Below are positions 7,631-26,419 of a stretch of 43,307 nt of DNA, in pieces; the first letter of the stretch is position 1, and every line of letters begins with the position of its first letter. The notes below the pieces were generated by a model that saw only the letters and a program-made list of their open reading frames with translations, was not told the DNA's origin and ran no database searches. Where the stretch lies: positions 1-43,307 of IMG/VR virus record IMGVR_UViG_3300045988_156495; one strand, written 5' to 3'. A program made the translations under genes and the position numbers. Source of the DNA: a virus.

Positions 7631-7729
7631 TTCCTATATGGGATTTTTTGATTTTTAAAATATCCCACATAATCTCCCACAAATAAGGAACACTTGCACG
7701 ATATTAAAAAACAAAAATGGCAAACAAAA

Positions 7730-7780
7730 AAGCTTGGGAACCACGGTTTAAACGTGTTTTACCCAAGCTTAGCTTTTTTA
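7730..7780 (+). terminator. Terminator hairpin after int (the attP region probably lies between 7631 and about 7960)
   Basis: AAGCTTGGG (7730..7738) pairs with CCCAAGCTT (7762..7770). There is an inner CACG/CGTG stem. The hairpin is followed by AGCTTTTTTAATTTTT. Confidence 0.6.
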
Positions 7781-7966
7781 ATTTTTGCTACCGGTCATTC
7801 CCACTCAATCGTTGCATCCATTGACCTAATAGCTTTTGAATATGTGTGTTCCATTTTATTTCCATATTTTGGTTAAATTTAGCTTTTTATGCACAAAAAT
7901 AAGCCTCCCTGAGCAAAGGAGGCAGAACGGCAAGGTATTACAGGCTGAATAAAATATTTAGTTGCT

Positions 7967-9541
7967 TACGTAGTGGCTGCTTAAAAATTCTATAATTCAG
8001 GCAGTTAAGCTAATATATGCATTATTGCGGTATAATAAATCCATTGGAATTAGCTGTTTTCCTGCATTTTCCTTGCATTTTTTGGGAAGCTACTCGGAGG
8101 TTATCGTATGGTCTATCGTCACAGCCCGCTTCAATTGTCATTTGAATCCTTTGGTGCCGGTTTAAGTACCCCACTTAGCTCTAACAATGAGTGGGTCCAG
8201 TTGGCGGAGGTCATGCCCTGGAAAGCTCTCGATGAGGCATACCAATTGGAGTTCACCAAAAATGCGGGACGTGCGGCAAAACCATTTCGTTTACTCTATG
8301 GGGCAATCCTGATCCAACAACGGATGGGTTTAACTGATCGTGGGGTGGTTGCGGCAATTCGTGATACACCCGCACTTCAATATTTCATCGGGTTGTCCGA
8401 ATACAAAGCGGTTGAGCCGTTCAATTATTCCAGCCTGGCACACTTTCGCAAACGAATTGCCGATATCTCCGAGCTGATTACGAATATCATGAATGATACA
8501 GTACGCGCCAAGATCGAAGCGTTGGTCCCATTCAAAGTGGACACCGTCATCACGGACGCAACCGCAGTGCCAGTCAAAATCAAGTATCCTCAAGACACCG
8601 TCCTCCTCAACCAAGCAAGGCTGAATCTTGAGGCGATGGCGATCGATATGGCACACCAACTTGGTGTGCCAAACCCACGCATGTACAAACGCGAGGCGAA
8701 GCATTGTTGGACCTCATTTTCACGACATCCAAAGCAACAGCGTGGTGGCTTTCATAAACAGGTCAAGGCCCAACTTCAATATGTGCGCCGTGATTTGCGG
8801 TACATCAACGAATTCATCGATCAGGGTGCGACTCTACCAGATGAACAAGCGATTCGCTTAGGCGTGATTCGAATTCTATTTGACCAGCAATGGTACATGT
8901 ATACCCACAAGACTCACCACGTTGAAGACCGAATTGTTAGTCTCCAACAGCCGTACATTCGCCCAATTCAACGTGGTAAGGCCAATGCTAAAGTTGAATT
9001 TGGGGCGAAGATTGACTGTTCGTTAAGTGAAGGCGTAGTCGACATTGAACGTTTTGATTTCACCGCATTCTCTGAGGGCCAAGACTTCGCGGAAACTTTA
9101 GACCACTATTACGACCTTCATGGACATTATCCGGATGAAGTACTGGCCGATACGCTGTACCGTAATCGGGAGAACCTAAAGCTGTGTAAGGATTTGGGTA
9201 TCCGAATCTGCGGTCCGAAGCTTGGCCGGCATCCAAAACACGTTGATGCAGCGAAACGGCGTGAGGATACTGATGCCGAGAATCGAAGAGGTACCATTGA
9301 ACGCCGGTTTGCTTTTATGAAGGGCACGCTGGGGCTTGGCTTGGTGAACACTCGGACAGCTGAATCACTGGCCGTCAAGATTGACGCGGCCATCGTCTTG
9401 AGCAATGTGCTGACCCTGTTAAGGGTATTTGCTATACCAATTTTAATTTTGGCTAAATTCGAGGGTGAGGCCTATCAAATTCGCTATAAATTTACTACAA
9501 GGGTCGAAGATATGGTGGCCTAGTTCAACAGCCACTACGTA
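7967..9541 (+). mobile_element. IS5/IS1182-like insertion sequence (core boundaries; may extend to about 7893..9615)
   Basis: 13-bp perfect terminal inverted repeat: TACGTAGTGGCTG at 7967..7979 and its reverse complement at 9529..9541. It encloses a single DDE transposase ORF. The sequence about 75 nt outside each IR is also weakly inverted-similar. Confidence 0.7.
8108..9523 (+). CDS. DDE transposase, IS5/IS1182 family (InsH-type N-terminal domain)
   Basis: 471 aa. The N-terminus FRLLYGAILIQQRMGLTDRGVVAAIRDTPALQYFIGL matches the DUF772/InsH N-terminal transposase domain. GGAGG RBS. Confidence 0.8.
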   Translation: MVYRHSPLQLSFESFGAGLSTPLSSNNEWVQLAEVMPWKALDEAYQLEFTKNAGRAAKPFRLLYGAILIQQRMGLTDRGVVAAIRDTPALQYFIGLSEYKAVEPFNYSSLAHFRKRIADISELITNIMNDTVRAKIEALVPFKVDTVITDATAVPVKIKYPQDTVLLNQARLNLEAMAIDMAHQLGVPNPRMYKREAKHCWTSFSRHPKQQRGGFHKQVKAQLQYVRRDLRYINEFIDQGATLPDEQAIRLGVIRILFDQQWYMYTHKTHHVEDRIVSLQQPYIRPIQRGKANAKVEFGAKIDCSLSEGVVDIERFDFTAFSEGQDFAETLDHYYDLHGHYPDEVLADTLYRNRENLKLCKDLGIRICGPKLGRHPKHVDAAKRREDTDAENRRGTIERRFAFMKGTLGLGLVNTRTAESLAVKIDAAIVLSNVLTLLRVFAIPILILAKFEGEAYQIRYKFTTRVEDMVA

Positions 9542-9897: not shown

Positions 9898-11070
9898 TTA
9901 CTTGATGTCCAGGCTTTCACCTGGGTAAATCAAACTGTAGATTGACTTGCCATTGTTAGCCGCCAGTGTGTACATGCTGATTCCGTACTTATAGGCAATA
10001 CTCCAGAAGCTATCACCATAGCGGACTGTGTAGTACGTGTGCGAATAGGTTTGCGCATTTGAACTGCGCGAACCATAGCTCTCACCACCATTTACGCCTA
10101 GCGCAACGTAATGATACCGACCGGAGTAGCTGAGATAACGTGCCCAGACGTATGAACCGCGAATATACACATGATCATACACAAGGCTCTCACCCGGCAC
10201 ATAGCTCCCAACTGCTGCGTATCCTGTACCAGCACCAGTGCGGATGTTAACAGTCGCGGACAGTTTGAAAACGCCAGTTTGCGCATAGTCGGTATCGCTG
10301 ACCACATTTGATTCTGCTGGTTGGCTTGGCACCGGTGTTACAGGTGCTGTACTACCGTTGGCTGCCGCATACTTGTCCCAAGTATTACGGTCACCATAAA
10401 AGACTGATAAATCTAGATTTTGGCCCCATCCGCTAAGATATCCCATTGAAGAATACTGAAAGGCGGTCATAGAAGGCCATTGTTTAATTGAGCCGAACAA
10501 GTCTCGTGGCTGATAGCCATAAACTGGATTATAGCTGTTGTACTGTGCGATCCAAATACCGTAGTTAGCAATCACGTCAGCAGGCCAAGAAAGTCCATTT
10601 TCAGCACTGAGTGACATGTAAATCCATGGCCTTACACCCGTTTGCTGGTAAACGTAATCTAACCAGCGTTTAGCATTCGCAACGCCGTTGGCATTTTGCA
10701 CTTTGCTGTAGTTCGTATCTTCAAAATCAAGAACCAACACGGCTTTGCCGATATAAGGACGTACCTGTTTTACAAAAGCTTCAGCTTGTGGGATTGGATC
10801 GCCTGCATTTAAAAAGTGGTAAATTCCAAGTTTCTTACCGCTAGACAATGCTTGCTGCGCATTTGTTTGAAATTGTGGATTAACGTAGCCAGTACCCTCT
10901 GTGGCCTTAACGATAGCAAAATCTGCAGGTACACGACTGACGTCAATACCGTAGTTGTTGCTTGACACGTCAATGCCATTCAATGCCGCATTGACCTGTG
11001 ACGGCAGGGCAAAAGAAATAGCCGCCAAGAAGGCGACTACCAGGGTGATAAGTTTATTTTTTACTTTCAT
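9898..11070 (-). CDS. Endolysin: signal peptide + GH25 muramidase + SH3b + LysM
   Basis: Start MKVKNKLITLVVAFLAAISFALPSQVNA-A (signal-peptide-like) preceded by AAGGAGG. GH25-like NGIDVSSNNYGIDVS...AIVKATEGTGYVNP...LGIYHF. SH3b-like TVNIRTGAGTGYAAVGSYVPGESL. C-terminal LysM YTVRYGDSFWSIAYKYGISMYTLAANNG. Confidence 0.85.
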   Translation of the reverse strand: MKVKNKLITLVVAFLAAISFALPSQVNAALNGIDVSSNNYGIDVSRVPADFAIVKATEGTGYVNPQFQTNAQQALSSGKKLGIYHFLNAGDPIPQAEAFVKQVRPYIGKAVLVLDFEDTNYSKVQNANGVANAKRWLDYVYQQTGVRPWIYMSLSAENGLSWPADVIANYGIWIAQYNSYNPVYGYQPRDLFGSIKQWPSMTAFQYSSMGYLSGWGQNLDLSVFYGDRNTWDKYAAANGSTAPVTPVPSQPAESNVVSDTDYAQTGVFKLSATVNIRTGAGTGYAAVGSYVPGESLVYDHVYIRGSYVWARYLSYSGRYHYVALGVNGGESYGSRSSNAQTYSHTYYTVRYGDSFWSIAYKYGISMYTLAANNGKSIYSLIYPGESLDIK

Positions 11071-11225
11071 GATGTCCTCCTTATTGTGATAAAACGCGAC
11101 AAATGTTGGACGATAATTTAGCTTCAGCAACTAATTCCATAGTTTTTAAAAATATCTTTTCATTGTCTTATTTTTCTATACAATGGTATTGATGAAATGA
11201 GTGTATTGAAAACAAGTGAGAGGTA

Positions 11226-11816
11226 ATGAAGTTGAATTTTTTTAAAGATATTTTCCAGATTTTTTTAGACTTTTGGCGGTTTATTTTAGAGCACATGCCA
11301 TTAATTGTCGCGTTTTTTTCAGTGTGGAACGTAATTACAAATACAAAACAAATCCATAATCTCAATAAACAAAATCAAGTCGCGAATACCAGAAAACAGG
11401 CCAGCAAAATCGCTGCATGGATTGAATCATATCCTAATCCAACAACTTCCGAGTCGTTTATTGCAAGAATTTGTCTTTCAAATGCTAGCGATACTCCTGT
11501 ATATAATCTGTTTGTCATTTCAGTATTGAATACCGAATCGATGCAAGAACTGCCAAAAGTTTACCAGTTGGCGGTCAGCAGAGGAAACATAGCACATGTC
11601 GAACTCCTCCCACCAAATAAACACTCAATTACGATGAATGTGCCAATGAACGGAATGGGAAACAAACACGCCGTAATACTGCTCTGCTTTACGGACTCGA
11701 ATGAAAGTCAATGGATTCGTACCCCAAATGGCACATTGATGAATTCAAAGTATATCACTCCAATCGCTCATGCAGGATTTACTCTGCCTTATACAGACAC
11801 GCCCATAGAGAAATAA
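11226..11816 (+). CDS. Hypothetical membrane-anchored protein, on the opposite strand, inserted between holin and endolysin
   Basis: 196-aa ORF in a visibly AT-rich segment. N-terminal hydrophobic span (MPLIVAFFSVWNVI). Convergent with, and overlapping, the 11779..11988 ORF. No recognisable domain. Confidence 0.55.
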   Translation: MKLNFFKDIFQIFLDFWRFILEHMPLIVAFFSVWNVITNTKQIHNLNKQNQVANTRKQASKIAAWIESYPNPTTSESFIARICLSNASDTPVYNLFVISVLNTESMQELPKVYQLAVSRGNIAHVELLPPNKHSITMNVPMNGMGNKHAVILLCFTDSNESQWIRTPNGTLMNSKYITPIAHAGFTLPYTDTPIEK

Positions 11817-11988
11817 CCGTGAAAAATAAACAGCATATCAAAAGTGCTCGTATGATCATTACTAAAACATTTTGTATTCCTGTAGAAACTTCCATCATTC
11901 CAATCGTGGCATAAAGTGCAAAACCAATAAGCGCAAAAACAGGCAAAATGAATATAAGCAAAATGATATCCACCTTAAAATTACCCAT
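11779..11988 (-). CDS. Small multi-TM protein co-transcribed with the holin (possible second holin or antiholin)
   Basis: 69 aa and highly hydrophobic. GGAG RBS 8 nt upstream, placed directly after the holin stop codon. Confidence 0.55.
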   Translation of the reverse strand: MGNFKVDIILLIFILPVFALIGFALYATIGMMEVSTGIQNVLVMIIRALLICCLFFTVISLWACLYKAE

Positions 11989-13462: not shown

Positions 13463-16390
13463 TTAATTCACCACCGCATCATTGGTCGGATACGCATCAT
13501 GAGTAATAAAGCTCAAGCTGCCAGCATACCCGCCTTGTCCACGCCATGGAATAATGTAAATTCCACCAGCTGAAACATATAATTCACAGGCTGCGCCCGT
13601 ATACGACATGCTACCGAGCAACCTTGCTGCATCATCACTGTTAAATGGGCTATACCCCGGTCTAATGTCCGCAATCTTAACCCATCCATTGCCAGTCTTC
13701 ATTTGGAAAGCAATCCCAATGGTGACATTTGGGCCTTTTCTTGAATATGAGATATTTAAGTTCTTGACATCATTAGTTTCCAGCCCCGAGTCTTTGTGAT
13801 AGTAATCAACTGCATCATGAGCATTAAAAGTGGAAGTGATGTATTTGGCAGAATTACCCAATCCGCTGACTAGGTCTGTCAGTTCAAGAACACCCATCGA
13901 AATTCTGCTGGTGTGCATTTGTGTTGTTCCATCTGTCTGCGTAATGTATGACAGTAATCCATCGGGATTTACTTCCGTATGATAGATTTGGCCGTTTGGC
14001 TTGCCATTAGTGTCCTCAATATTACCGGAAATGACATATGAGGCACCATTGAGCGTTAAGGAACCACTGGACAATATCCCGGATCCTGCAATGCTCACGT
14101 GTTGGAAAGGAACGTTGATATTAGGCGAATTAATCTCAGCGGAATTAAGAATAATTGAGTTGAGTTCTTTAATGTACAAAACAGCTTGAGCAATCGCATC
14201 ATCTACCCACTTGGAACCGTCATAGCGCTGTACAGCCGTTGCGTCTTTTAAGCTTGTCCCGTGCCACCAGGTATCGCCCTTTTTGGGATTTGCTGGGGCA
14301 TCTAGCTGTACATAAGGAAACGGCACATCCTTGCTTCCAGGAGTACCCTGAACGCCTTGAGGGCCCTGCGGTCCTTGTGGACCAGTGTCACCCTTTGGCC
14401 CCTGCACTAGTTGCCAAGAATAAACATCCGGGTTAGTGCTGTCGGCCTGTGTGAAGTCTGTGTAACTACCGATGTATTTTCTAGAACCCGGAGTATCGAG
14501 CGAAAAGTTCGTTTTACCGTCACTGCTGTCAGCATATGCAATATGGAAGTACGATGTCTTGCCATCGGCACCTGCTTTACCCGGCACCCCATCTTTACCA
14601 TCCGCACCATCTGCGCCCTTAATGAGCGACCAGTGATAGTCGCTTGGATTCGTGCTGTCGCCAGATGAAAAGTCGCTGTAGAAACCAATGTACTTGCGGT
14701 TAGAAGCGGTAGTTGAGAAGTCGGTATTGCCGTCTTGGCTGTTTGCATAAGCAAAGTGAGCATAGGCAGTACGACCATCAGCACCCGGTTTCCCTGGCAA
14801 TCCTTCATCGCCCTTTGGCCCCACGTCACCATCTTCACCTTTGAAAAGCGCCCAGCTGTAATCAGCCGGATTAGTGCTGTCGGCCTGTGTGAAGTCGCTG
14901 TACGTGCCAATATACTTTTTGCCATCGCCACCGGATACCGTGAACCCACTTTGGCCACTTACATCATCTGCCCAAGCAGTGTGAAAATAGCTTGTACGGC
15001 CATCCGCACCCTTGGCACCAGGAACACCATCAGCGCCATCGGCGCCCTGAATCAGTGCCCATTTACCAGCGTAATCGTCCGGATTGTCGCTTGGGACGGA
15101 TGTCTTATTTGACCAAACGATTGCCATATACTTCTTACCAGTTGGGAAGGCACTCATATTGGTGCCTTTATCGTCATCGGCATAACGGAGCCAAGGATAG
15201 TATTGAACGGTTTTTGAGATATTCGACATCTGGTTGGCAAGCTCGCTGAGCCGTTCGTCAAAGCTAACGGTCTCGTGCGCAAACTCGCCCAAAGTAAGCT
15301 TGACTGAATGGTTAGCACGGCTCCGCTGAATGCTCAATACCTTGGCAGATAGGAATAGCTGTTGATTCTCATCGGCGATGTGGACGGTTTGATTCAGTGG
15401 TACGTATGGTGAGTTAACCAAATCAATATCATAGGTTTCATTCGGATGGTTATACTTTTTCAAGTCTGCCAAAGCTGCTTGCAAAAGTGCCGCCTGCGAT
15501 TTTGAATCAAACGTTTTAACCCTATTCCAGTCAGACTGTGTTGGGTTAGGGTTGCTGTTGCTTAACAAACGTGAATATTTCTGCACAGCAATGGTGTCAT
15601 GCAAAAATCCGTACTGATCAAGCACAAACTGTCCCGTTGGATCAGTCCACTTGTAGCCGATCAAGTTAATTGGATCCTGATTAGTTGATCCATCCGTACT
15701 TTCTGGAACCGCTCCATAAGCCTTGATCGATGTTTCCATGTCATAGGTATCGAGGTGCGTGACGATATTGTTGATGTCCTTATTCATTTCAAAGGAAATC
15801 AAGCTGTCACCGGCCGTTTCATGTCGAATGTTAATGACATGCTTAACCAAATTCGTTCCAACAAACTCAAATCCAAAACTAAGCACTGCATCAAAATCTT
15901 TTGCCACAGCAATAATGCGAGCCAACGATGATTCTTCACTAGTCCACTCAAGTGTTCGAACATTCTTAGGAAATTCATTAACGCCAATCTCCCAGCCAGA
16001 ATCATTTGTAAACCTCGTGATGTAGTCAGCGATGGTATATGGTTTGTCGGCCTTGTACGCGCCAACGGTTTCGTTAATCAAATCATTACCGGCATCACTA
16101 GCAACAATTGAGTGGATATGTCCTAGTGAATCATGGTCAACCGATTCAATTACCATTTGGTGAGCGTTGCCTTCTTCATCTTGATACATGATGAAGTTGG
16201 TTGCTTTAGCCATCTCATTGACTGCTTGTTCCTGATCATTCGTGAAGTGAATATCAAGAGAAAGCTCGACAGCAGGACGATTGTCAACACTTTGCGTTTC
16301 TATATCGTTGTCAATTCGCCATTCGCCTTTGCCATCAGTCGACCCAACACCCAAAATGTTTGATTTTCGATCTGCAAAGTAATACTCCAT
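13463..16390 (-). CDS. Tail-associated protein / receptor-binding fibre (Tal-type N-terminus, collagen-like repeats)
   Basis: 975 aa. The N-terminus MEYYFADRKSNILGVGSTDG... resembles the prophage tail endopeptidase / minor structural protein N-terminal region. Carries G-x-y runs (GPKGDTGPQGPQGPQGVQGTPG). Lies directly after Dit. Confidence 0.75.
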   Translation of the reverse strand: MEYYFADRKSNILGVGSTDGKGEWRIDNDIETQSVDNRPAVELSLDIHFTNDQEQAVNEMAKATNFIMYQDEEGNAHQMVIESVDHDSLGHIHSIVASDAGNDLINETVGAYKADKPYTIADYITRFTNDSGWEIGVNEFPKNVRTLEWTSEESSLARIIAVAKDFDAVLSFGFEFVGTNLVKHVINIRHETAGDSLISFEMNKDINNIVTHLDTYDMETSIKAYGAVPESTDGSTNQDPINLIGYKWTDPTGQFVLDQYGFLHDTIAVQKYSRLLSNSNPNPTQSDWNRVKTFDSKSQAALLQAALADLKKYNHPNETYDIDLVNSPYVPLNQTVHIADENQQLFLSAKVLSIQRSRANHSVKLTLGEFAHETVSFDERLSELANQMSNISKTVQYYPWLRYADDDKGTNMSAFPTGKKYMAIVWSNKTSVPSDNPDDYAGKWALIQGADGADGVPGAKGADGRTSYFHTAWADDVSGQSGFTVSGGDGKKYIGTYSDFTQADSTNPADYSWALFKGEDGDVGPKGDEGLPGKPGADGRTAYAHFAYANSQDGNTDFSTTASNRKYIGFYSDFSSGDSTNPSDYHWSLIKGADGADGKDGVPGKAGADGKTSYFHIAYADSSDGKTNFSLDTPGSRKYIGSYTDFTQADSTNPDVYSWQLVQGPKGDTGPQGPQGPQGVQGTPGSKDVPFPYVQLDAPANPKKGDTWWHGTSLKDATAVQRYDGSKWVDDAIAQAVLYIKELNSIILNSAEINSPNINVPFQHVSIAGSGILSSGSLTLNGASYVISGNIEDTNGKPNGQIYHTEVNPDGLLSYITQTDGTTQMHTSRISMGVLELTDLVSGLGNSAKYITSTFNAHDAVDYYHKDSGLETNDVKNLNISYSRKGPNVTIGIAFQMKTGNGWVKIADIRPGYSPFNSDDAARLLGSMSYTGAACELYVSAGGIYIIPWRGQGGYAGSLSFITHDAYPTNDAVVN
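14336..15047 (-). repeat. Three tandem units of about 70 aa (collagen-like Gxy stretch + beta-rich module) inside the fibre gene
   Basis: Units GADGADGVPGAKGADGRTSYFHTAWADD...YIGTYSDFTQADSTNPADYSW, GPKGDEGLPGKPGADGRTAYAHFAYAN...YIGFYSDFSSGDSTNPSDYHW and GKDGVPGKAGADGKTSYFHIAYAD...YIGSYTDFTQADSTNPDVYSW. Confidence 0.85.
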
Positions 16391-18367
16391 TTATAGCCAC
16401 GCCTCCCTTATCTCGACTTCACATGCAAATGGTTGTGCCCAGCTCGAGGGCGTGATAGCAATCTTTGTATCACCTGGTGGTAACTTGAATTGTTCCCACT
16501 GGTTGCCGATCGTGTGCATAGTCGGGTCAAGAGAACCATTCAAGTACGTCTTAGCGTTCGCCACATCAATCTTGAGAACATCACCATTGCTAAATCGATT
16601 CTTGATATTCGTATACCAGCTAACATTTTGCCATTTTACGGTGGACGCAATCAGATACATGGTTGATTCGCCCCACGTCTTGTCACGCATGAACCACGTG
16701 GAAAATTGCTTGGTCTCAACATCGGCAGCGTCCGCAAAGGTAAACTGGCGAGTAATAGTCGTCTCTCGTCCTTGATTGCCAACCCATGGTGACACTCGGA
16801 AAACAACTGAATTACCAAATTTCTGTAATTCCAACTGAATGAACTTGTCGTTAGTGAAAATGCTACGATCAAGCTGTTCATTGACGACTAGTTGGCCTTT
16901 GTAGTAGCACATCCACCAAAGCTGATCGGACAATGCGCTATTATCCTTCAGTATCATCTGAAAAATTGGCTTACCGTCACTCTCTAACGTTGTTTCGAGC
17001 GCACCTACCTGTGCTACCCCAGTTTGGAAGCGTGTCATAACGTCCCATGTGAGATTGCTCTTGAAGTTACCGTTATGCGTCTGGACGAGATTGTGCTTGA
17101 TTGAAGGACCGTTCCAATACTTGTGGTCGCCAGTAATACTGGGCCAATTAGGTTCAACCTTCCAGCCATCATAATCGTCATGAGTCCAAATCGCATTGCC
17201 AATCTGTTCATTAGGCATACTAGGATCACCACCCCAATAGGGATTGTTTGTGGCGGCTTGATTATCCATATGTGAGCCTTGCACGGCGGCTAAGTTAAGT
17301 GCTACTTCGCTTTCTTCGGTGGTGAAACCATCTATTTCTTGCGTGCCAAATTGGAGAATACCCGGGCGATCATTGACAATCCCAACCATGCCGTTATCAG
17401 CGTGCATAGTTGCCGTAATAACTGGCTCAACAGGATAAGTGCCACCATTGTGTACCGTGATGGTGTTGGTATAATATTCAGGATCAGCTGGGTTAGGCGA
17501 CCATGGAGAAGGAACAGTCCCCGCTTCAAGCTTTGCTTCTTTGTATCCATATGATCCAAATGCTGAAGTGCCATGGTTGAATGTGTAAACCGTTTGGCAC
17601 TTGATATTTGCATATTTGCTGTCTGTTGTCACTTTGACAATGCTATATCCACTAGTACCAGCCGATATAGTATTGCCTTTTGCCCATACAATTTGACTAC
17701 CACTAGAATCTGAACAGTCCAATTTTGCGCATGCATCAAAAGTGGGATTATCAATCCAAACTCTGAAGCAATAGTTTGTATTTTTTTCTGGTACGATACT
17801 TCCAAAAACATGTTCACCCCAGACATCTACCGTTGTTACTGCTAGCTGATTACTTGTCCCCGTCAACAAATTTACTGGCACGTCCTTGTATGGCATATTG
17901 TCAGCCGTCTGCGTGGCTACCGAGTGCGCAATGCCATCGGGAACAAATAAAGTGAACGAAGATGTGATTGCATTTCTGCCCTTAGGAACATCATCAACAT
18001 CTGTGAGCACGGCATTCCAGTACACAGACAAGTCATCATTGAACGAAACCTGATGAGTGTCACCGTGCAAGATGCCACTTAGCTTATAGAAGGCAGCGCG
18101 AAACGACTTTTCATCAGCTGCTATAAGCTGATATCCAACAGTGATTTCCCGAGATGGGTTTCGTACATACTCCAGCATTTCGCCATCAGATATTCCTATA
18201 GGATTGCTTTTAGCGTCTTGTTTAAGAAGCTCACGCCCTCCGACCTGAAGTGTTTGATAACCAGGAATCAGATCTTCGATATACTGGCCATCAATTTTCA
18301 TTGCCTCAGCTGGGTACTGTTTCTTATCTGCACCCGTGAAGGGCGTCGTTTCTCTGAAATCGTACAA
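16391..18367 (-). CDS. Distal tail protein (evolved Dit with a large insertion)
   Basis: Lies between the tape measure and Tal genes. The N-terminus MYDFRETTPFTG...IPGYQTLQVGGREL is typical of siphovirus Dit / phage tail family proteins. At 658 aa it is about 2.5 times the size of a minimal Dit. Confidence 0.7.
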   Translation of the reverse strand: MYDFRETTPFTGADKKQYPAEAMKIDGQYIEDLIPGYQTLQVGGRELLKQDAKSNPIGISDGEMLEYVRNPSREITVGYQLIAADEKSFRAAFYKLSGILHGDTHQVSFNDDLSVYWNAVLTDVDDVPKGRNAITSSFTLFVPDGIAHSVATQTADNMPYKDVPVNLLTGTSNQLAVTTVDVWGEHVFGSIVPEKNTNYCFRVWIDNPTFDACAKLDCSDSSGSQIVWAKGNTISAGTSGYSIVKVTTDSKYANIKCQTVYTFNHGTSAFGSYGYKEAKLEAGTVPSPWSPNPADPEYYTNTITVHNGGTYPVEPVITATMHADNGMVGIVNDRPGILQFGTQEIDGFTTEESEVALNLAAVQGSHMDNQAATNNPYWGGDPSMPNEQIGNAIWTHDDYDGWKVEPNWPSITGDHKYWNGPSIKHNLVQTHNGNFKSNLTWDVMTRFQTGVAQVGALETTLESDGKPIFQMILKDNSALSDQLWWMCYYKGQLVVNEQLDRSIFTNDKFIQLELQKFGNSVVFRVSPWVGNQGRETTITRQFTFADAADVETKQFSTWFMRDKTWGESTMYLIASTVKWQNVSWYTNIKNRFSNGDVLKIDVANAKTYLNGSLDPTMHTIGNQWEQFKLPPGDTKIAITPSSWAQPFACEVEIREAWL

Positions 18368-21300
18368 TTAGACTAGCCCCTTTCGATAATTGCTTACCTT
18401 TGTCAAACGATTAAGCTCTGTTTGCATTGGGTTTGCGGTTGCACGAGCAACCTCTCGGCCGTCAATGTACAGAGGAACCTCAATCGTTTGCTTGCGAGTG
18501 TAGTTGACATCAAGATTTGAAGATAAGGTTGCACCCTGTACACTGTTATTAAGCGACTGTAATGATGCATCAAAGGGAGAAGTATTCACTGCCGGCATCG
18601 TAACTGCAGCGCTATCAGCAATAGCTTGTGCCATGCTAGAAACATTCCTTTGGACGTCTGAGAACTTGTCAGTAAGCCCTGCATTCAAGCCGTTCATGAT
18701 GGCGTTACCAGCAGGTATGAGCAACTTGGCATCGTAGCTGATTGGGCCTTTATGCTTGCGAATCCAATCAGCAATTCCACCAACAAACTTCTTGATGCCT
18801 TCCCAGACTTTCTTAAGCCCCTTAAAGAAACTGTCCATGATTGCTTTACCAGCAGCCATTAAATCAATGTGTCTAAGCGCATCGAAGGCTCCTTTGATAC
18901 CGCTAACCACACCATTTACCATGCCAGTAAAACCAGACCATACAGCCTTAGCACCATTAAAAATACTAGTAGCAGCTCCAATCACAATAGACTGTATGTT
19001 GTTCCAAGCTGATGAAAAGAATGATGTAATGCTATTCCACAATCCGGAAAAGAATCCGGGAAGCGCGTTCCAAATTCCCTCGGCTGTGCTGACCGTTCCG
19101 CTCCATAGTCCTGATAAGAATGAAGCAATACCATTCCATACGCCCTCGGTGGTAGACACAATACCATTCCATAATCCGCTAAAAAATGACGAAAGCGCAT
19201 TCCAAATAGCGGAAGCAGCAGATACAGCACCATTCCAAAGCCCCTCTAAAGCTGAAACCAAAGTATTCCAAACGGTTATTGCATAAGTTTGAATAAGGCT
19301 CCAAATACCGGAGAAATACGTAACAAGACCATTCCAGATCTGCCCAGCGGCAGAAACAATGCTAGTCCAGATCAGCTGGAGATCAGCGCCTAGCTGTGTC
19401 CAATTTAAAGTAAGCAAATCAATGACAATAAGAATTGGACCCATGATAACTGCTTTAAGCATGTTCCAAACACCGGTAGCAACTTGGACAATCCCATTCC
19501 AAATTGTCGTCAGAGAACCGCCAAAGGTTGACCATATAGCAGTGGCTACTGCAACTATTCCATTCCACAGAGTCGTGAAGAACGTGGATAGCACGTTCCA
19601 AACTGTTGTTGCTGCAGTAACAGCACCTTGCCAGATAGCTGAGAGAATGGTTGTGAATGCAGTCCAAGAAGCTGATGCCGTGGTAGTAATCCCAGTCCAT
19701 AGATTGCTGAAGAAACCTGTAATGCCGCCCCAAGCCGTCTGAATGCCGCTAATTGCAGATGTAAACGCACCCGATATAGCATTCCAAACAGTTTGTGCAA
19801 CTCCTACAAGTCCTTGCCAAGCTCCTTGTAACCACGAAACAAATCCCGACCATAGTTTTTGGCCAGTCTTGGTTTGGGTGAAAAAGTACACCAGACCAGA
19901 AATCACTGCTGCAATCCCAGCAATCAAAAGTACCCACGGATTCATGCCTAAGATCAATCCAAACGCTTTCCATACACCACCAGCCGTTTTTACGATAGTC
20001 CCGAAGTTAGTGATAACGGATATAACGCCTCGAATAGGGCCAATCATTTTAGAAAAAACACCGAGAACGCTTGAAAATCCGCCGATGGCTAATCCAATTA
20101 CTTTGAAGGCCCCGACAGCTCCAAAGATTGCCGCAGCAAATGATTTAACGATGTCGTTAGCAAACGCTGCTTTAACAATAGCTGCGAATGGCTTCAAAAC
20201 AGCTACCACTCCGCTTAGAGCGACCTTAACACCGTCAAAAATTGCTTTCCACGGTAAATTAGCAATAAAGTTCCCAACGGTAGTCATCGCTTCCATTGCT
20301 ACTACTCCGAAATCTGTAACAGCTTGTTTGATTCCGTTAAATAGTCCCGACATTTGCCCATTACCAAATGCCGAATTAAAAGCATCTCCGACCTTTTGAG
20401 CAATACTAATTAGATTGACAAATGCAACATTGACTAAGCTACCAACTAAGCTCCAAATTGTTTGTAAAACGGATCCGACTCCTTGGAGAACGGAACTTAG
20501 CCCGCTCATCGAGTCGCCCTTCCCCAAGCTGCTTAGTTGTGTCTTAATATTCAAAATCAATGCCGAAAACGGAGAAAAGAAGCGACCAATTGAAGCAAGA
20601 ACTGAATCGAAGTTCATGGCTCCGATCTTATCAATAATGCCGCTAATAGCTCCGATAGCGATTTTAGACATTGCCTGCCAAGCAGGCTGAAGCTTGTTTG
20701 CCAGTGTTTCCTGAAGGCCGTCCATTGCCTCCCCGACTGTCTTGTAACTCGTGGCCATCTTCTGGAAAGCCTTGCTGTTGCCTGCCTTTTCGATACCATC
20801 GAAGAACTGCTGCGTGCTTACTTTGCCGTTTTGAACATTCTGAACTAGTTCTTTGGTGCTCATGCCCATTGCTTTAGCAACGGCTGCCATGCCTGCCGGA
20901 GTCTGTTCAAGCATTAGACGAAAATCAGCCCACTGCACCATTGGCTTAGCAGCCATTTGTGTGCCTTGTTCCATCAATGTCTTCATGGCTTGCTTGGGAT
21001 TATCTGTAGCAGCAGCTAGGCCACCCATACCTTTAACAAGGCGGCCAACTCCTTTTACACCTACTGATGCAAACTGTGCATAGGCAGAAGCCATGTCAGA
21101 TGAACTGTAAATGGTCTTCTGAGCATATGATTGCAACGACTTTTCAATTGAGGAAATCTGTGCAGGCGTCTTACCCAGAAACTTCATATTACTCTCAAAC
21201 GTCTGCCAAGCTTTGCTTGATTCGTCTAGTTCTCCTACCATGCTTCTCACACCATCGCCAATAGCCCCTACCACTTTGGTAAGTCCTATAGCTCCAGCAA

Positions 21301-21457
21301 TTTTGCTCACGGTTGATACAAAATTACCCGCTGGCTTTGTCGACTTTTCAAAGCTATCACCGACCTTTGACGCAGAACTCGCGATATTCTTAAAAGTCCC
21401 CGAAAAGTTGCGGTCAACGGCGGATAAAATTGCTTCAACACTAAAACTGTCAGCCAT
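18368..21457 (-). CDS. Tape measure protein
   Basis: 1029 aa, Ala/Gly-rich and helical, with many periodic W-N-x repeats (TVWNAISG, TLWNGIVA, GLWNGAVS ...). Lies immediately after the G/G-T chaperone genes. Confidence 0.9.
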   Translation of the reverse strand: MADSFSVEAILSAVDRNFSGTFKNIASSASKVGDSFEKSTKPAGNFVSTVSKIAGAIGLTKVVGAIGDGVRSMVGELDESSKAWQTFESNMKFLGKTPAQISSIEKSLQSYAQKTIYSSSDMASAYAQFASVGVKGVGRLVKGMGGLAAATDNPKQAMKTLMEQGTQMAAKPMVQWADFRLMLEQTPAGMAAVAKAMGMSTKELVQNVQNGKVSTQQFFDGIEKAGNSKAFQKMATSYKTVGEAMDGLQETLANKLQPAWQAMSKIAIGAISGIIDKIGAMNFDSVLASIGRFFSPFSALILNIKTQLSSLGKGDSMSGLSSVLQGVGSVLQTIWSLVGSLVNVAFVNLISIAQKVGDAFNSAFGNGQMSGLFNGIKQAVTDFGVVAMEAMTTVGNFIANLPWKAIFDGVKVALSGVVAVLKPFAAIVKAAFANDIVKSFAAAIFGAVGAFKVIGLAIGGFSSVLGVFSKMIGPIRGVISVITNFGTIVKTAGGVWKAFGLILGMNPWVLLIAGIAAVISGLVYFFTQTKTGQKLWSGFVSWLQGAWQGLVGVAQTVWNAISGAFTSAISGIQTAWGGITGFFSNLWTGITTTASASWTAFTTILSAIWQGAVTAATTVWNVLSTFFTTLWNGIVAVATAIWSTFGGSLTTIWNGIVQVATGVWNMLKAVIMGPILIVIDLLTLNWTQLGADLQLIWTSIVSAAGQIWNGLVTYFSGIWSLIQTYAITVWNTLVSALEGLWNGAVSAASAIWNALSSFFSGLWNGIVSTTEGVWNGIASFLSGLWSGTVSTAEGIWNALPGFFSGLWNSITSFFSSAWNNIQSIVIGAATSIFNGAKAVWSGFTGMVNGVVSGIKGAFDALRHIDLMAAGKAIMDSFFKGLKKVWEGIKKFVGGIADWIRKHKGPISYDAKLLIPAGNAIMNGLNAGLTDKFSDVQRNVSSMAQAIADSAAVTMPAVNTSPFDASLQSLNNSVQGATLSSNLDVNYTRKQTIEVPLYIDGREVARATANPMQTELNRLTKVSNYRKGLV

Positions 21458-22240: not shown

Positions 22241-22262
22241 GATTTAAAACCCTTTCTTTTAA

Positions 22263-22335
22263 AGCCGCCCGGGTTTCACCCGTACTGTGACTTTCTTGGG
22301 CGACTTGCATCAATTAATTAAACGTGCGAAGTGGT
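22263..22335 (-). repeat. Conserved 3'-end element, copy A (spans the major tail protein stop codon)
   Basis: 73 nt sharing identical blocks with 25315..25387: agccgcccgg, ccgtactgt, ggcgactt, aattaaacgtgcgaagtggt. As RNA, AGUCGCC pairs with GGCGGCU and encloses a CGGGU-GAA-ACCCG hairpin. Confidence 0.8.
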
Positions 22336-22920
22336 TGTGGTGGTGGTAGTAGTTGTTGTTTCGCTCGTACCTGGGTCTTTATCAGAATCCCACTTGACAC
22401 CACCGCCGGTACTATCAAGGCTAGTGACCTTGCCGACTCCAAGGAATACGTAATCTACCTGTTCCTGAGTTTCCTCATCGAGAGTTGTCCATCCGCGTTT
22501 AGGCGTGCCATTAACTGAGAATGTGACATCGCGAGTAGAGTGATCATCAGGGTCATTGTCGCTGCTGTCTTCTTGAACGGTAACTTGCATGTACCATGCG
22601 TAATACTTGCCAGCGGAATTCTTACGCTTGCGGTAGAGAATCCAAAAGTCGAGCAATTCGCCGTCAAACAGTGAATCGTACATTACGTCTGCAATTGCAG
22701 CCGTGTTGTTCAGGAACTCGACTTCGAGATCGGTACTTGCGGAACTACGAGTTGCTACATTGCCGTCCTTGGTAACAGTGGAATCACTGTCAACAGACGG
22801 ATCAAAGGACAGCGAAGTCTGCCAAGGGATAATTTGGCCGCCAACCTTTGCTTGATCGCTATGCTTGCGAGCCAAGGCAACAACGTCCATGCCTTCTAGC
22901 ACTTTTAATTCATTTGCCAT
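22318..22920 (-). CDS. Major tail protein with a C-terminal (Thr)10-Ser-His-Val tail
   Basis: 200 aa, located after the tail terminator and before the chaperones. Ends ...DPGTSETTTTTTTTTTSHV. Confidence 0.75.
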   Translation of the reverse strand: MANELKVLEGMDVVALARKHSDQAKVGGQIIPWQTSLSFDPSVDSDSTVTKDGNVATRSSASTDLEVEFLNNTAAIADVMYDSLFDGELLDFWILYRKRKNSAGKYYAWYMQVTVQEDSSDNDPDDHSTRDVTFSVNGTPKRGWTTLDEETQEQVDYVFLGVGKVTSLDSTGGGVKWDSDKDPGTSETTTTTTTTTTSHV

Positions 22921-22931
22921 GTGATGGCCTC

Positions 22932-23336
22932 CTATAAAATATTTAGATTGAGTATCAGCGTGGCTCGGTTGAGAACCGTGTCAGGGACACTCTGGTCTTG
23001 TGTGAACTCTTTTGATTGGTCTTCTACACGTCCATAGAATCGGTAGTCATCGGTTAGCACTTGTCCAATCGCGGCACGAAAAAAGCGCTCCGCCATATCA
23101 GATACGGTGAAACGCTGCTTTTTGTCGCCCCAGATGTCGATGGTGATTAGCACATTACCATTGAGTGACGTCTTTGTTGCAGTAGGAATAACTTGAATAT
23201 CGCCAACAATGACGAAGGGATATGGGGCGTTCTCCTGCTGCATGGGCAAATGGTCATAGGTCTTGTACCCAGACGATTGCGAGAAAGCATAGAAGTAGTC
23301 GTAGAGTTCTTGCTCTGGTGATGTGATTTGAATCAC
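22932..23336 (-). CDS. Tail terminator / tail completion protein (DUF3168-like)
   Basis: 134 aa, immediately upstream of the major tail protein in the conserved siphovirus order. Confidence 0.55.
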   Translation of the reverse strand: MIQITSPEQELYDYFYAFSQSSGYKTYDHLPMQQENAPYPFVIVGDIQVIPTATKTSLNGNVLITIDIWGDKKQRFTVSDMAERFFRAAIGQVLTDDYRFYGRVEDQSKEFTQDQSVPDTVLNRATLILNLNIL

Positions 23337-23744
23337 CTACTTTGCTGCTTGTTTAAGCTGATTAATAAACTGAACCTTTTGATAAAGGAATGCAGGCTTC
23401 AATACAGGACGTGCCCGCATGAAACGGGTCCCTTTTTCGGTGTACGGATTGTATTCTTGCGTCATCGCTACGATACCGGACAACCCCGAATCAGTAATTG
23501 CTACCTTGATGCCACGCTTTGTGGCACCGGTTGGTTTGACAAGAACGCGTCCTTTTCCCTTAGCCCACTCATAGTGGCCTGTATACACGGTGCCGGCCAT
23601 TTGCTGAGAACGCATCTGGAGCTGTGCAGTCTGCTGCTTAACGATTTGCTTGACAACGTCCATCTTCGCTCGCTTCAGCAGACCAGCAACCAGTTTGTCC
23701 ATGCCCTTTATCTGCATATTGTAGCTAATGCTAGCTTTGCTCAT
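23337..23744 (-). CDS. HK97 gp10-family head-tail joining protein
   Basis: 135 aa. MSKASISYNMQIKGMDKL...MTQEYNPYTEKGTRFMRARPVLKPAF resembles the HK97 gp10 family. Confidence 0.6.
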   Translation of the reverse strand: MSKASISYNMQIKGMDKLVAGLLKRAKMDVVKQIVKQQTAQLQMRSQQMAGTVYTGHYEWAKGKGRVLVKPTGATKRGIKVAITDSGLSGIVAMTQEYNPYTEKGTRFMRARPVLKPAFLYQKVQFINQLKQAAK

Positions 23745-24043
23745 TTCGTCTCACCCACAATCAAAGTGGCATTTTGAAGCGGGACACGGTCAGTATTGAG
23801 GGCATAATGAGTCGCTTCATCGTCAATCGTTAAATAGCTCCAATTGACGGTGATCGGCTCAGCTAAACGGATTACTTTTGCCTTTTGAGCATAGTTTCCG
23901 AATAGCTGAACACTCTTGTCGGTTCCCGTGTCGGTGACACTGGCAACAGCGGTGGCAACCTTTTTCACATCACCGTATTGATGTGTTTGCGGATTATATT
24001 CTTCATCATCAAGCCAGAATGTAACCTCATGATCTAACCGCAT
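23741..24043 (-). CDS. Head closure / head-tail adaptor protein
   Basis: 100 aa from the ATG at 24043, with RBS AGAGGTGA upstream. Assigned by position in the connector module. The track ORF extends unrealistically upstream to 24193. Confidence 0.55.
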   Translation of the reverse strand: MRLDHEVTFWLDDEEYNPQTHQYGDVKKVATAVASVTDTGTDKSVQLFGNYAQKAKVIRLAEPITVNWSYLTIDDEATHYALNTDRVPLQNATLIVGETK

Positions 24044-24047
24044 ATGA

Positions 24048-24422
24048 TCACCTCTTTGGATAGCCAGAAATGAAGCTAACGGTCCCAAGAGACTTGGCAT
24101 TCTTCCCGTTGGCTTCTTTCCAATCATTGATGTCGTCAGCAAAATCATCGAAGTCATTAGACTTGAACGTGAACGACTGCCCCTCCTGCTCATAAGACGT
24201 CATGCCTTCGTTCTTACGCCGGTTATATCGTCGCACGCAGACTTCCAAGGCAATGTAGGCTAACTCATCAGGAAAGGCCTCATCTGTCCGCAAACCGAGC
24301 TTAAATCGCAAGGCTTGCGTCGTATTTTTGATAATGAGGTTAAGCACATCATCCTGTGTATCAGTTTTGATTTCCATCATCGTCTTCAAATCTGCAAGTT
24401 TTATTGGATCGCTTTCTGCCAT
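24048..24422 (-). CDS. gp6-like head-tail connector protein
   Basis: 124 aa. MAESDPIKLADLKTMMEIKTDTQDDVLNLIIKNTTQAL is typical of the phage gp6-like connector (DNA-packaging) family. Its ATG shares one nt with the upstream TGA (TGATG). Confidence 0.6.
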   Translation of the reverse strand: MAESDPIKLADLKTMMEIKTDTQDDVLNLIIKNTTQALRFKLGLRTDEAFPDELAYIALEVCVRRYNRRKNEGMTSYEQEGQSFTFKSNDFDDFADDINDWKEANGKNAKSLGTVSFISGYPKR

Positions 24423-25300
24423 CACTTCACCGCCTTTATTGCTTGAGCGTACTTGTATGAGCACTTCAACTTATCAACGAAGCTAAGGTCATCACCAAAC
24501 GGGACTCGATCGGTGTACTTGCCCTTAAAGAAAAGATCATGCATATCACCGGTAACACCAGCATTGTGCATGATCTTGGTTTCACTCCATCGTTTCACGG
24601 GATCAGTTGGCCAACAAAAATCGAGCTCATCACTGATGACGGGCCCGATGTTGAAGTACATCATATTCCATAACTGCGACCACATTTCAGCGGTCCATTT
24701 CTGGATGTTGCTGTCGACCGTTTGCAGGTATTGCCACAGTCGGTTGCTGTCGGCATACACCTTCCGCCAGTATTCAGCTGACGGGTGACTGATGATCCAT
24801 TGAGCACCACCAGAATTATGGTTAATCGTTTCAAGCGAAGCCAACGTGACTCCGACAATATCAGCCATGCGTTTCAGGATTTCTTCTCCATGTTCGCATT
24901 GCTTGATATAGTCAACGCTGATATAGCTAAGCGTGTTACTACACAGCCAGCGATCAGGCTTTGCTTTCAGCTTGCGAAAGTCTGGCCGTTTACGGAAGAT
25001 GACGTCACTATCAAAGTAGAAATAGTCCTCGTTCTCACGTTCGGGGTCTTCAGCTAGATATTGCCACCAAAGCCAAGGCTTCACAGAGGGGATATACTGC
25101 TTGTTTGCGCGCTTGTCGGTATACGTGTGTACTTCTACTCCGTATTTACTAGAAAGCGTTTCTGGCACCTTAGAATCATGCACAGTGAAGAGCAAAACGA
25201 CATCTTTCATGTCAAACCCGACACTTTGCAGATTGGTTAGGCAGACTTCCAACTCCCATTCAAAACGTTTAATGGCCGGCTGACATAAAATAAGCTTCAT
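24422..25300 (-). CDS. Putative GT-A-type glycosyltransferase embedded in the head operon
   Basis: 292 aa from the ATG at 25300 (GGAGGA RBS). Rossmann-like start KLILCQP. Acidic DxD motif in YFYFDSDVIF. W-rich and enzyme-like, with no resemblance to structural proteins. Its stop overlaps the connector gene start. Confidence 0.45.
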   Translation of the reverse strand: MKLILCQPAIKRFEWELEVCLTNLQSVGFDMKDVVLLFTVHDSKVPETLSSKYGVEVHTYTDKRANKQYIPSVKPWLWWQYLAEDPERENEDYFYFDSDVIFRKRPDFRKLKAKPDRWLCSNTLSYISVDYIKQCEHGEEILKRMADIVGVTLASLETINHNSGGAQWIISHPSAEYWRKVYADSNRLWQYLQTVDSNIQKWTAEMWSQLWNMMYFNIGPVISDELDFCWPTDPVKRWSETKIMHNAGVTGDMHDLFFKGKYTDRVPFGDDLSFVDKLKCSYKYAQAIKAVK

Positions 25301-25314
25301 TCTGTCCTCCAATC

Positions 25315-25387
25315 AGCCGCCCGGTTTCCCGTACTGTCCTATTTCGATAGGCGACTTAGATCAAATCAATTAAACGTGCGAAGTGGT
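25315..25387 (-). repeat. Conserved 3'-end element, copy B (spans the major capsid protein stop codon)
   Basis: See 22263..22335. Same AGUCGCC...GGCGGCU outer stem, with an inner CGG-GAAA-CCG hairpin. Confidence 0.8.
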
Positions 25388-26419
25388 GGTGGTTGTTGTT
25401 GTTTTGCCTGGAACGATCACTTTGGCTTGCAAGACATTCTCGGCTTCTGGGAAGCTAGGAAGTGCAGTGGCTGCTGCCTTTTCCCACGTTGCAATTGGAT
25501 CTTGCGTGGTTTCGTAAACGGTGGTGAACACATTGCCAACAGTGCCCTGTTGAACACCCGGAGTTGCGATCAATCGAGACTCTTCAGGGGTAGGACCATA
25601 AACGGTTTGCCCGAGCTGATCATCACCAAAGGCTACCAAAGTATCTTCCGGGAAGTACCGTTCAACGGTATAGATACCATTGGCTCCCTGCTTGCGGTAC
25701 TTGGCATCATACGTCACGATGGTTGGCAAGCCGAACGACTGCATAACCGCATTGAGACTGCCAACACTAGGCAACAGGCCTGCTGTCTTGAAGTAGTCAG
25801 CAAATGCTTTACTCCGGATCAGGGCAGTTTGTACCTTGGAAGAAGTCAAGATTCGCGTTGGCGCGTAGTCGAGCAGTGCAAACCAGTCTTGCAAGTCCTT
25901 AATCGGATCAGCACCATTTGCATCCCAAGAAGTAGTTGCGGTAACTTGGTGTTCACTTGGAACATGGTAATCAACATCGAAGTTGAGATTGTTCTCATTA
26001 ATGGTGATCTTACCAGTTGCCAAAGCCTCCATGCGCATCTTTTCAACGCGTGCATAAACACCTTGAACCAAAACATCCAAGTCGTTGTACACAAGGCTGG
26101 TCAGGTAGTTCTGTTCAGCCGGTGTGCGCGGATTGCGTAATGCGATCAGGTCCTTTTCCTTAAGCTGCATCTTGCGTTTGATGTAGCCAAGTTCAGCGGC
26201 CTGAACGCTCGCTTCACGACTGCCAATCTCCGCTTCCGTATCGAATGCAGAAATAGATGCCACGATAGGCGTCTTAGAACCACCACGAAGAAATTCAAAA
26301 TCCAACTGATTAATTTTGGTTGATGGGAACAAGGTGTCCCCAAGTAATTGCGGATACTGGCGGTTTTGAACGTAATCAAGTACCGTCTTTTGATTAAACA
26401 AATCTAAAATAGCTGGCAT
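25370..26419 (-). CDS. Major capsid protein (lambda gpE-like family) with a C-terminal (Thr)7-Ser-His-Val tail
   Basis: 349 aa. MPAILDLFNQKTVLDYVQNRQYPQLLGDTLFP resembles the capsid protein E family. Lies after the scaffold and decoration genes. Ends ...VPGKTTTTTTTSHV. Confidence 0.8.
   Translation of the reverse strand: MPAILDLFNQKTVLDYVQNRQYPQLLGDTLFPSTKINQLDFEFLRGGSKTPIVASISAFDTEAEIGSREASVQAAELGYIKRKMQLKEKDLIALRNPRTPAEQNYLTSLVYNDLDVLVQGVYARVEKMRMEALATGKITINENNLNFDVDYHVPSEHQVTATTSWDANGADPIKDLQDWFALLDYAPTRILTSSKVQTALIRSKAFADYFKTAGLLPSVGSLNAVMQSFGLPTIVTYDAKYRKQGANGIYTVERYFPEDTLVAFGDDQLGQTVYGPTPEESRLIATPGVQQGTVGNVFTTVYETTQDPIATWEKAAATALPSFPEAENVLQAKVIVPGKTTTTTTTSHV

Follow-up and report, generated by a model that had tools for sequence, protein, structure and literature searches.

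Virion glycosylation by phage-encoded enzymes has been described for the mycobacteriophages Che8, Corndog and Myrna, in which glycosyltransferases (GTs) modify the capsid and the tail tube (Freeman et al. 2023, as related in PMC12363180 and PMC11256854). The role reported for these glycans in the same two accounts is that of a shield against antibodies (PMC12363180, PMC11256854). A 43,307-nucleotide stretch of viral DNA, IMG/VR record IMGVR_UViG_3300045988_156495 (hereafter the window, meaning the whole stretch that was analyzed), carries a putative counterpart in a siphovirus prophage of Lacticaseibacillus: a 292-amino-acid open reading frame (ORF) that is a candidate GT of the GT-A fold, together with major capsid and major tail proteins that each bear a C-terminal poly-Thr tag.

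As in the Che8-type system, the putative acceptors in the window are the two most abundant virion proteins. In both, the capsid and tail proteins have a shared C-terminal ending, which in Che8 reads ..KTGS and ..SDGS; unlike the window, Che8 has no homopolymeric Thr run on either protein. Che8 possesses three enzymes, classified by Pfam as gp108 (GT2 plus methyltransferase), gp109 (GT2-like), and gp110 (GT25), and their genes are found some 50 kilobases (kb) away from the structural genes, at the extreme right of the genome. In the window there is only one such gene, which is GT8-like and sits within the head operon. The hosts of Che8 are Actinobacteria and those of window-type phages are Firmicutes. 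No homology to the essential GT gp110 is detectable (hhalign probability 0.07%), and gp108 and gp109 are set apart by their Pfam families. The window would follow the same logic as the mycobacteriophage system, a phage enzyme paired with C-terminal acceptor sites, while enzyme family, gene number, gene position, tag, and host phylum all differ. Full-text literature searches found no description of virion glycosylation of this kind in phages of Firmicutes.

Cellular systems offer a further parallel. Mucin-type O-glycosylation of Thr-rich repeats is carried out by the GT27 ppGalNAc-transferases, and the serine-rich-repeat adhesins of Firmicutes are glycosylated by GtfA/B plus GT8 extension enzymes. 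In these systems, DxD-type GT-A enzymes densely O-glycosylate low-complexity Ser/Thr tracts, producing an extended hydrophilic brush. The substrates are secreted or surface cellular proteins with long repeats, and several enzymes are involved, whereas the window has a 6–12-residue tag on cytoplasmically assembled virion subunits and one enzyme. The likeness is drawn as an analogy.

Poly-Thr tags and a GT-A-fold candidate in the head operon

The major capsid protein, which has a lambda gpE-like HK97 fold, ends in GKTTTTTTTSHV (the longer stretch up to the stop codon being ...VPGKTTTTTTTSHV), and the major tail protein ends in SETTTTTTTTTTSHV (...GTSETTTTTTTTTTSHV). A preliminary description of the window held that the two proteins carry the same tail. 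Both do end in T(n)SHV, but the tails are not literally identical, with seven Thr residues in the capsid protein and ten in the tail protein. The mixed use of ACA, ACT, and ACC codons, also claimed there, is borne out, the capsid run reading aca aca aca acc acc acc act and the tail run aca aca act act acc acc acc aca acc act. Across all six frames of the 43-kb window and ORFs of at least 60 amino acids, only these two proteins have a [T/S] run of five or more residues, and the chance of a run of 7 to 10 Thr arising by composition is about 1e-8 or less per position. Among capsid and tail proteins that are otherwise 97–99% identical (loci L007–L166), the length of the Thr run ranges from T5 to T10, suggesting that the tag may undergo rapid expansion and contraction.

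The 292-amino-acid ORF lies, as first described, between the capsid and connector genes. It starts with an ATG at 25300 that is preceded by a GGAGG, and its homologues begin at the same MK.I.CQP start. Its TGA overlaps the ATG of the connector gene as TGATG, which confirms the translational coupling proposed earlier. The protein matches PHROG 4417 over its full length (E 1.1e-150, residues 1–292 on positions 1–292 of the 293-position profile), a family annotated as 'unknown function'.

Structural modeling points to a nucleotide-sugar transferase. The AlphaFold2 model, built from 40 homologues, has a predicted local distance difference test (pLDDT) score of 97 and a predicted template modeling (pTM) score of 0.93, and superposes on known GT-A structures as a single Rossmann-like alpha/beta/alpha domain. 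Foldseek returns 280 PDB matches at E<=1e-3, and the best 50 of these 280 are all GT-A enzymes, nearly all of them retaining. The matches include the catalytic domain of UGGT (GT24, E 8e-8), WbbM, the GT6 enzymes alpha-1,3-GalT and GTA/GTB, and the GT8 enzymes glycogenin, LgtC, and XXYLT1, with E-values of 8e-8 to 1e-5 and template modeling (TM) scores of 0.50–0.56. UGGT, glycogenin, and XXYLT1 act on proteins or glycoproteins. Among the predicted viral structures of BFVD, the model matches an uncultured phage protein (TM 0.92), Orf49 of Lactobacillus phage LP65 (TM 0.79), and GT8 or nucleotide-diphospho-sugar transferases of giant viruses and cyanophages. Because the model is without membrane or secretion features, the protein is presumed to be cytoplasmic, where virions assemble.

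Several residues of catalytic type are conserved. The DxD motif, D97-S-D99, comes after the strand formed by residues 92–95, and neither D97 nor D99 varies in a diverse set of 40 homologues. G165, A166, H245, K259, and G260 are also invariant, and Q167 nearly so, in homologues down to ~50% identity. The order of these motifs in the ORF (DxD, GGxQ, H..G..K) is that of DAD, GGDQ, and HFLGrvK in human glycogenin-1, whose sequence was verified against PDB 3t7m. H245-N-A-G248...K259-G260 and G165-A166-Q167 parallel, in order, H212..K218 and GGDQ of glycogenin, a correspondence that was read by eye and is no significant alignment; hhalign places only the DxD-on-DxD segment (probability 0.4%).

With the retaining GT-A enzymes of CAZy families GT8, GT24, and GT6, the ORF has in common the fold, a DxD after a beta strand, and the motif order seen in glycogenin. 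It differs from them in its longer motif spacing and in showing no significant sequence similarity, and none of the known substrates of the three families resembles the homopolymeric Thr tag that is its putative acceptor. No Pfam match, Glyco_transf_8 included, was obtained for 40 family members at the default threshold or at E<=10. A PDB sequence profile search with the ORF family also returned nothing, and membership in CAZy GT8 was not found by sequence with either Pfam or hhalign against glycogenin-1. The confident model, the exclusive presence of nucleotide-sugar GT-A transferases among the best Foldseek matches, and the invariant DxD support the initial proposal of a GT-A enzyme with this motif, and the predicted structure makes the ORF a candidate GT-A-fold nucleotide-sugar glycosyltransferase.

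When 1.84 billion representative proteins were searched with the family profile, the wider enzyme family came to 878 members at E<=1e-3. Many of these are 450–780 amino acids long, and the distant members that were scanned (P0153, P0181, P0247, and P0157) include fusions to Glyco_transf_7C (a second GT), a methyltransferase, radical-SAM plus SPASM domains, and a PqqD/RRE peptide-recognition domain. Radical-SAM/SPASM and PqqD/RRE domains are typical of peptide-modifying enzymes, and their presence fits a family that acts on peptide substrates; the set of fusions is also in keeping with glycan tailoring. These domain combinations hint that some relatives may belong to pathways resembling those of ribosomally synthesized and post-translationally modified peptides, in which peptides are glycosylated.

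Co-occurrence of the gene and the tags across phages

The association between gene and tags was assessed in a de-duplicated set of loci with at least 3.5 kb on both flanks, of which 93 have the GT gene and 37 lack it. In 93/93 gene-bearing loci, one or more ORFs on the same strand have a poly-Thr run at the C-terminus, and 81/93 contain at least two such ORFs. Such an ORF occurs in 3/37 loci without the gene (two real, one spurious). The Fisher test gives 3.5e-28, a value that is not a true probability since the loci are related; by GT identity, the gene-bearing loci fall into 27 clusters at 90%, 15 at 70%, and 4 at 55%. In 82 of the 93 loci, the start of the GT gene lies within 150 nucleotides of a tagged gene upstream, this tagged neighbor being the capsid gene in some and the tail gene in others. 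Tagged capsid proteins belong to PHROGs 29, 840, 10, and 3270 (a protease–capsid fusion), which are unrelated families, and tagged tail-tube proteins belong to PHROGs 238, 117, and 88; a 105-amino-acid protein of PHROG 749 is tagged as well. Among capsid homologues from IMG/VR and GTDB, the tag is found on all those in gene-bearing loci and on none in loci without the gene.

The same pattern is seen in Enterococcus phages phiFL1A and VPE25, lactococcal phage bIL285, and Clostridium phage phiCTP1. In the Herelleviridae myovirus Iacchus, the gene lies amid replication genes, and the two genes immediately 5' of it encode poly-Thr proteins. In the Staphylococcus Sextaecvirus SA2 (locus L240), the gene directly follows a poly-Thr ORF and the gene of a tagged tail protein. 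In the 11117–11930 region of SA2, a very poly-Thr-rich ORF of 90 amino acids shares sequence, in a different frame, with the 3' end of the gene for the tail protein and may represent a frameshift extension. An annotated 'assembly protease' of the same phage (6874–7983) contains three internal T7 runs.

Several gene-bearing loci also encode small proteins of ~115–145 amino acids that consist of a short FN3/immunoglobulin (Ig)-like N-terminal part followed by 5–8 mucin-like Thr repeats (TTTTTTTxKP). They are found directly upstream of the GT gene, in L001 (4432–4809; gp8 of phage iLp84), L194 (8871–9230), L209 (1783–2205), L084 (7302–7718), and L239 (11604–11996). iLp84 gp8 has a weak match to the Pfam family 'Mucin'. 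These proteins are candidate glycosylated head-decoration proteins.

Close relatives of the window differ in whether they carry the module. Lacticaseibacillus phage R9.1 is the nearest isolated phage, with 94% nucleotide identity over the region, followed by iLp84 and PLE3 with 90%. In iLp84 and PLE3, the ORF is present at 85% identity, the capsid protein ends in ..VPTTTTTTTSK and the tail protein in ..GETTTTTTTSK, and an extra 125-amino-acid protein contains five Thr runs. Phages CL1, CL2, and iLp1308 have ~92% nucleotide identity to the window, yet they lack the ORF, and their capsid and tail proteins, which end in ..VLIPKP and ..APAKGGSGTGA, have no Thr run. The gene-bearing isolates (iLp84, PLE3, and R9.1) and the gene-less ones (CL1, CL2, and iLp1308) have hosts in the same Lacticaseibacillus casei group.

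The gene-less sister phages appear to decorate the capsid by another route. Ig-like capsid decoration through -1 programmed frameshifting is described for Lactobacillus phage A2. The capsid gene of CL2 ends in atc cca aaa cct tag, in which C CCA AAA forms a canonical slippery heptamer for -1 frameshifting, and from this site the -1 frame is open into an 89-amino-acid Big_2 Ig-like domain (Pfam 5.9e-14) that is annotated separately as 'minor capsid protein' (L002, 3528–3800, minus strand). A capsid slippery heptamer with an open -1 frame is also present in the GT-negative loci L109–L127. CL2-type phages thus probably produce a capsid–Ig fusion through an unannotated programmed -1 frameshift, as read from the sequence. 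The Ig-like domain added by frameshifting in CL2 would make the capsid C-terminus a display point on the capsid surface. The window has neither the slippery C CCA AAA nor Big_2, and has the Thr tag and the enzyme instead. The Ig-like decoration of CL1, CL2, and iLp1308 and the tag of the window nonetheless have the same slot between capsid and connector, the same attachment point at the capsid C-terminus, and a presumed role in surface decoration. The Thr tag and the enzyme take exactly the slot of the frameshift-added Ig-like domain in the sister phages, and the tag-plus-enzyme module is proposed as an alternative route to decoration of the virion surface.

The residues that follow the Thr run are themselves of interest. 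Capsid and tail tags within one genome tend to share their ends (SHA/SHA, TQA/TQA, HHD/HHD, TSA/TSA, and AAV/AAV). When one representative per 90% cluster was taken, giving 22 capsid–tail pairs, the last two tag residues were identical in 10/22, compared with 1.5 expected by shuffling (P<1e-4). In the window, the matching SHV ends do have homology at the DNA level: the tag ends and ~45 nucleotides of 3' flank form a direct repeat (22299–22364 versus 25350–25407, 75–88% identity), to which the capsid–GT intergenic region belongs, in common with the 3' flank of the tail gene. Elsewhere, in the 16 GT-positive loci inspected, matching tag ends often differ in synonymous codons, and the 3' flanks of paired tagged genes are unrelated, save for a few post-stop bases in some pairs. 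Recent DNA duplication was consequently rejected as a general cause of matching ends. Synonymous differences and unrelated flanks suggest that the post-Thr residues may be constrained at the protein level rather than by gene conversion only, and this constraint is perhaps recognition by the cognate enzyme.

A conserved hairpin (AAGUCGCC...CACAGUACGGG...GGGCGGCUU) lies 3' of the capsid-module and tail-tube genes of the window (22241–22320 and 25301–25372, minus strand), and the same hairpin occurs in CL2 (L002, ~1320–1390 and 3470–3530). Its folding z-scores are weak, at -0.9 on the capsid side and -1.25 on the tail side, and give it no statistical support on folding; having no U-tract, it is not a canonical terminator. 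The hairpin may stabilize the mRNA of the two genes with the highest expression, or mark a site at which that mRNA is processed. Its inclusion in the tag–enzyme system was considered and rejected in view of these unremarkable z-scores and of its presence after the genes of CL2, which has no poly-Thr tags, making the hairpin independent of the tag.

A proposed mechanism and its alternatives

The fold, the conserved catalytic-type residues, the position and coupling of the gene, the tags, and the co-occurrence and adjacency of gene and tags form the observed basis for a proposed mechanism. The enzyme, a cytoplasmic, metal-dependent GT-A protein of the retaining type, would be produced together with the late structural proteins and would use a host nucleotide-sugar to O-glycosylate the Thr hydroxyls of the C-terminal capsid and tail-tube tags. 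In relatives, it would also modify the small mucin-like poly-Thr decoration proteins. With every subunit tagged, the assembled virion would lie under a dense mucin-like glycan brush. From the observations we infer Thr as the acceptor and the enzyme as the initiator of the glycan, as well as the identity of the sugar and the role of the coat (shielding, stability, or adhesion). Direct O-glycosylation of the poly-Thr tags by a retaining GT-A enzyme during cytoplasmic assembly, yielding a mucin-like coat on head and tail, is considered likely on the strength of the model and the sequence patterns. The idea of a tag–enzyme pair that decorates the virion, put forward in the preliminary description, thus gains computational support from the predicted GT-A fold and the gene–tag co-occurrence.

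Several points weigh against this mechanism. The GT assignment comes from the fold alone, the Pfam, PDB-sequence, and hhalign–glycogenin searches not being significant, and the TM-scores of 0.50–0.56 are moderate. The loci are phylogenetically related, and the P-value overstates their independence. Lactobacilli have host O-glycosylation of Ala/Ser/Thr-rich regions, which could initiate the glycan. The expected joint occurrence of tags and gene holds in all 93 gene-bearing loci, but it fails in L138 and L141 (IMG/VR contigs 2905630502_000006 and 3300029088_000056), which keep a poly-Thr tag on the tail protein without the gene in its usual slot, a pattern that, taken strictly, the first description had named as contrary to its proposal. 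These two loci combine a CL2-type head module with an iLp84-type tagged tail protein. L070/L135 has the gene and a tagged capsid with a CL2-type untagged tail protein, and bIL285-type phages tag the tail protein only. From the untagged tail protein of L070/L135 and the tail-only tagging of bIL285-type phages, it follows that the pairing is strong and not obligatory for each protein. All of these exceptions look like the mosaic recombination that is typical of such phages.

The main alternative is that the Thr run receives its first sugar from a general O-glycosyltransferase of the host, and that the phage GT8-like enzyme only extends the glycan. GT8 enzymes add later sugars in the glycosylation of serine-rich-repeat adhesins, and the closest folds include the glycan extenders XXYLT1, LgtC, GT6, and UGGT, although glycogenin, also a close fold, directly glycosylates a protein side chain. 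The Glyco_transf_7C fusion in some family members implies multi-step glycans, whereas the PqqD/RRE fusion suggests direct recognition of a peptide. Priming by the host would suit the orphan tags of L138 and L141 and the established host O-glycosylation of Ala/Ser/Thr-rich regions in lactobacilli. However, the gene follows the tags from Lactobacillaceae to Clostridium, Staphylococcus, and Listeria, and a compatible primer enzyme would be needed in all of these hosts, making an extension-only role unlikely.

Two other explanations leave the Thr residues unmodified or the enzyme inactive. The enzyme could act on phage DNA, or on a polymer of the host envelope, either teichoic acid or cell-wall polysaccharide, serving superinfection exclusion or restriction evasion, with poly-Thr as a mere hydrophilic spacer. 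Prophages are known to encode GT-A enzymes with wall teichoic acid as their substrate, and, like those enzymes, the modeled protein is soluble and cytoplasmic. The Iacchus gene, moreover, lies outside the structural module beside a glycerophosphodiester phosphodiesterase gene, yet even there the adjacency to poly-Thr genes would go unexplained, as would the 93/93 co-occurrence. The translational coupling of the window gene within the late head operon also speaks against such a target, and lysogenic conversion is inapplicable to the lytic groups that carry the gene (Herelleviridae and Sextaecvirus); this explanation is accordingly given very little credence. A catalytically dead GT-fold protein could instead bind the poly-Thr tails, whether to assist or chaperone assembly or as a minor part of the virion structure. 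Such a protein would be at home among head and connector genes and would be compatible with the finding of no sequence-level membership in any curated GT family. The DxD, His245, Lys259, and GGAQ positions are invariant to ~50% identity, which is unexpected for a pseudoenzyme, and the family includes fusions to other modifying enzymes, so that a dead enzyme appears the most improbable of the explanations considered.

Beyond the window itself, direct O-glycosylation of the tags by the phage enzyme can be placed in a broader proposal toward which the present data lean: one-enzyme, mucin-type virion O-glycosylation that is widespread in Firmicutes phages. It would depend on a new, distantly GT8-like family (at least 878 clusters at 50% identity) and on a portable 6–12-residue poly-Thr tag, acquired independently by at least four capsid and three tail-tube families and by small FN3/Ig-like decoration proteins. 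The module would substitute for frameshift-added Ig-like domains as a minimal transferable pair, with post-Thr residues that co-evolve with the enzyme.

Prophage layout and possible biological meaning

Positions ~1–9500 of the window hold host or other mobile genes, among them a gene for a TerB_N protein, and the remainder is the siphovirus prophage, with its genes on the minus strand (Table 1). The DDE transposase ORF (8108–9523) sits between the tyrosine integrase (6467–7630) and the prophage lysis genes, a position suggesting that an insertion sequence has inserted at the prophage end.

Table 1. Coordinates of features in the 43,307-nucleotide window
Feature	Position	Strand	Evidence or remark
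Tyrosine integrase	6467-7630		Host/mobile part of window
DDE transposase	8108-9523		Host/mobile part of window
GH25-LysM lysin	9898-11130	minus	Holins also present
Tape measure	18368-21457	minus	Module also with tail tip and long 'evolved' Dit
3' flank of tail gene	22241..22317	minus	Second copy of hairpin
Major tail (tube) protein, 200 amino acids	22318..22920	minus	phrog_238 4e-53, PF06199
Tail-tube C-terminal tag TTTTTTTTTTSHV	22321..22359	minus	Putative O-glycosylation acceptor
Head-tail connector gene	24048..24422	minus	Pfam Phage_connect_1 4e-22
Soluble GT-A-fold glycosyltransferase candidate, 292 amino acids	24422..25300	minus	PHROG 4417
Invariant His245 (codon)	24566-24568	minus
DxD, D97/D99 (codons)	25004-25012	minus
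Capsid-GT intergenic region	25301..25369	minus	Hairpin (AAGUCGCC...GGGCGGCU) and GGAGG ribosome-binding site of GT gene
Major capsid protein, 349 amino acids, lambda gpE-like HK97 fold	25370..26419	minus	Pfam Phage_cap_E 8e-40, phrog_29 1e-90
Capsid C-terminal tag TTTTTTTSHV	25373..25402	minus	Putative O-glycosylation acceptor

In addition to the features in the table, the prophage encodes tail chaperones, a tail terminator, neck and adaptor proteins, a small head protein, a scaffold, a MuF-like minor head protein, the portal, and the terminase. Replication and regulation genes are also present. A second GT gene or a gene for sugar or sugar-nucleotide metabolism was sought in the prophage and none was found. 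The distal tail protein ('evolved' Dit; 16391–18367, minus strand) is unusually long at 658 amino acids, and the tail-tip protein (13463–16390, minus strand) has collagen-like repeats and a BppU-like domain. A 150-amino-acid ORF at 23741–24193 (minus strand) matches PHROG 348 from residue 51 on only; an internal Met (MRLDHEV...) is probably its true start, which would make the long stretch shared with the connector gene an artefact of ORF calling.

If the proposed mechanism is true, virion glycosylation is not peculiar to actinobacteriophages and would be a common trait among phages whose hosts are lactic acid bacteria, enterococci, staphylococci, listeriae, and clostridia. The phages affected would include those of dairy spoilage as well as candidates for phage therapy (VPE25-like phages and Sextaecvirus), and a glycan coat could alter how antibodies recognize them, how well they adhere to mucus, how stable they are in the gut or in dairy products, and how the body clears them. 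PHROG 4417 and hundreds of 'hypothetical proteins' would gain a function as a new glycosyltransferase family, and the tag and its enzyme would provide a very compact pair for glyco-engineering of phages or recombinant proteins.

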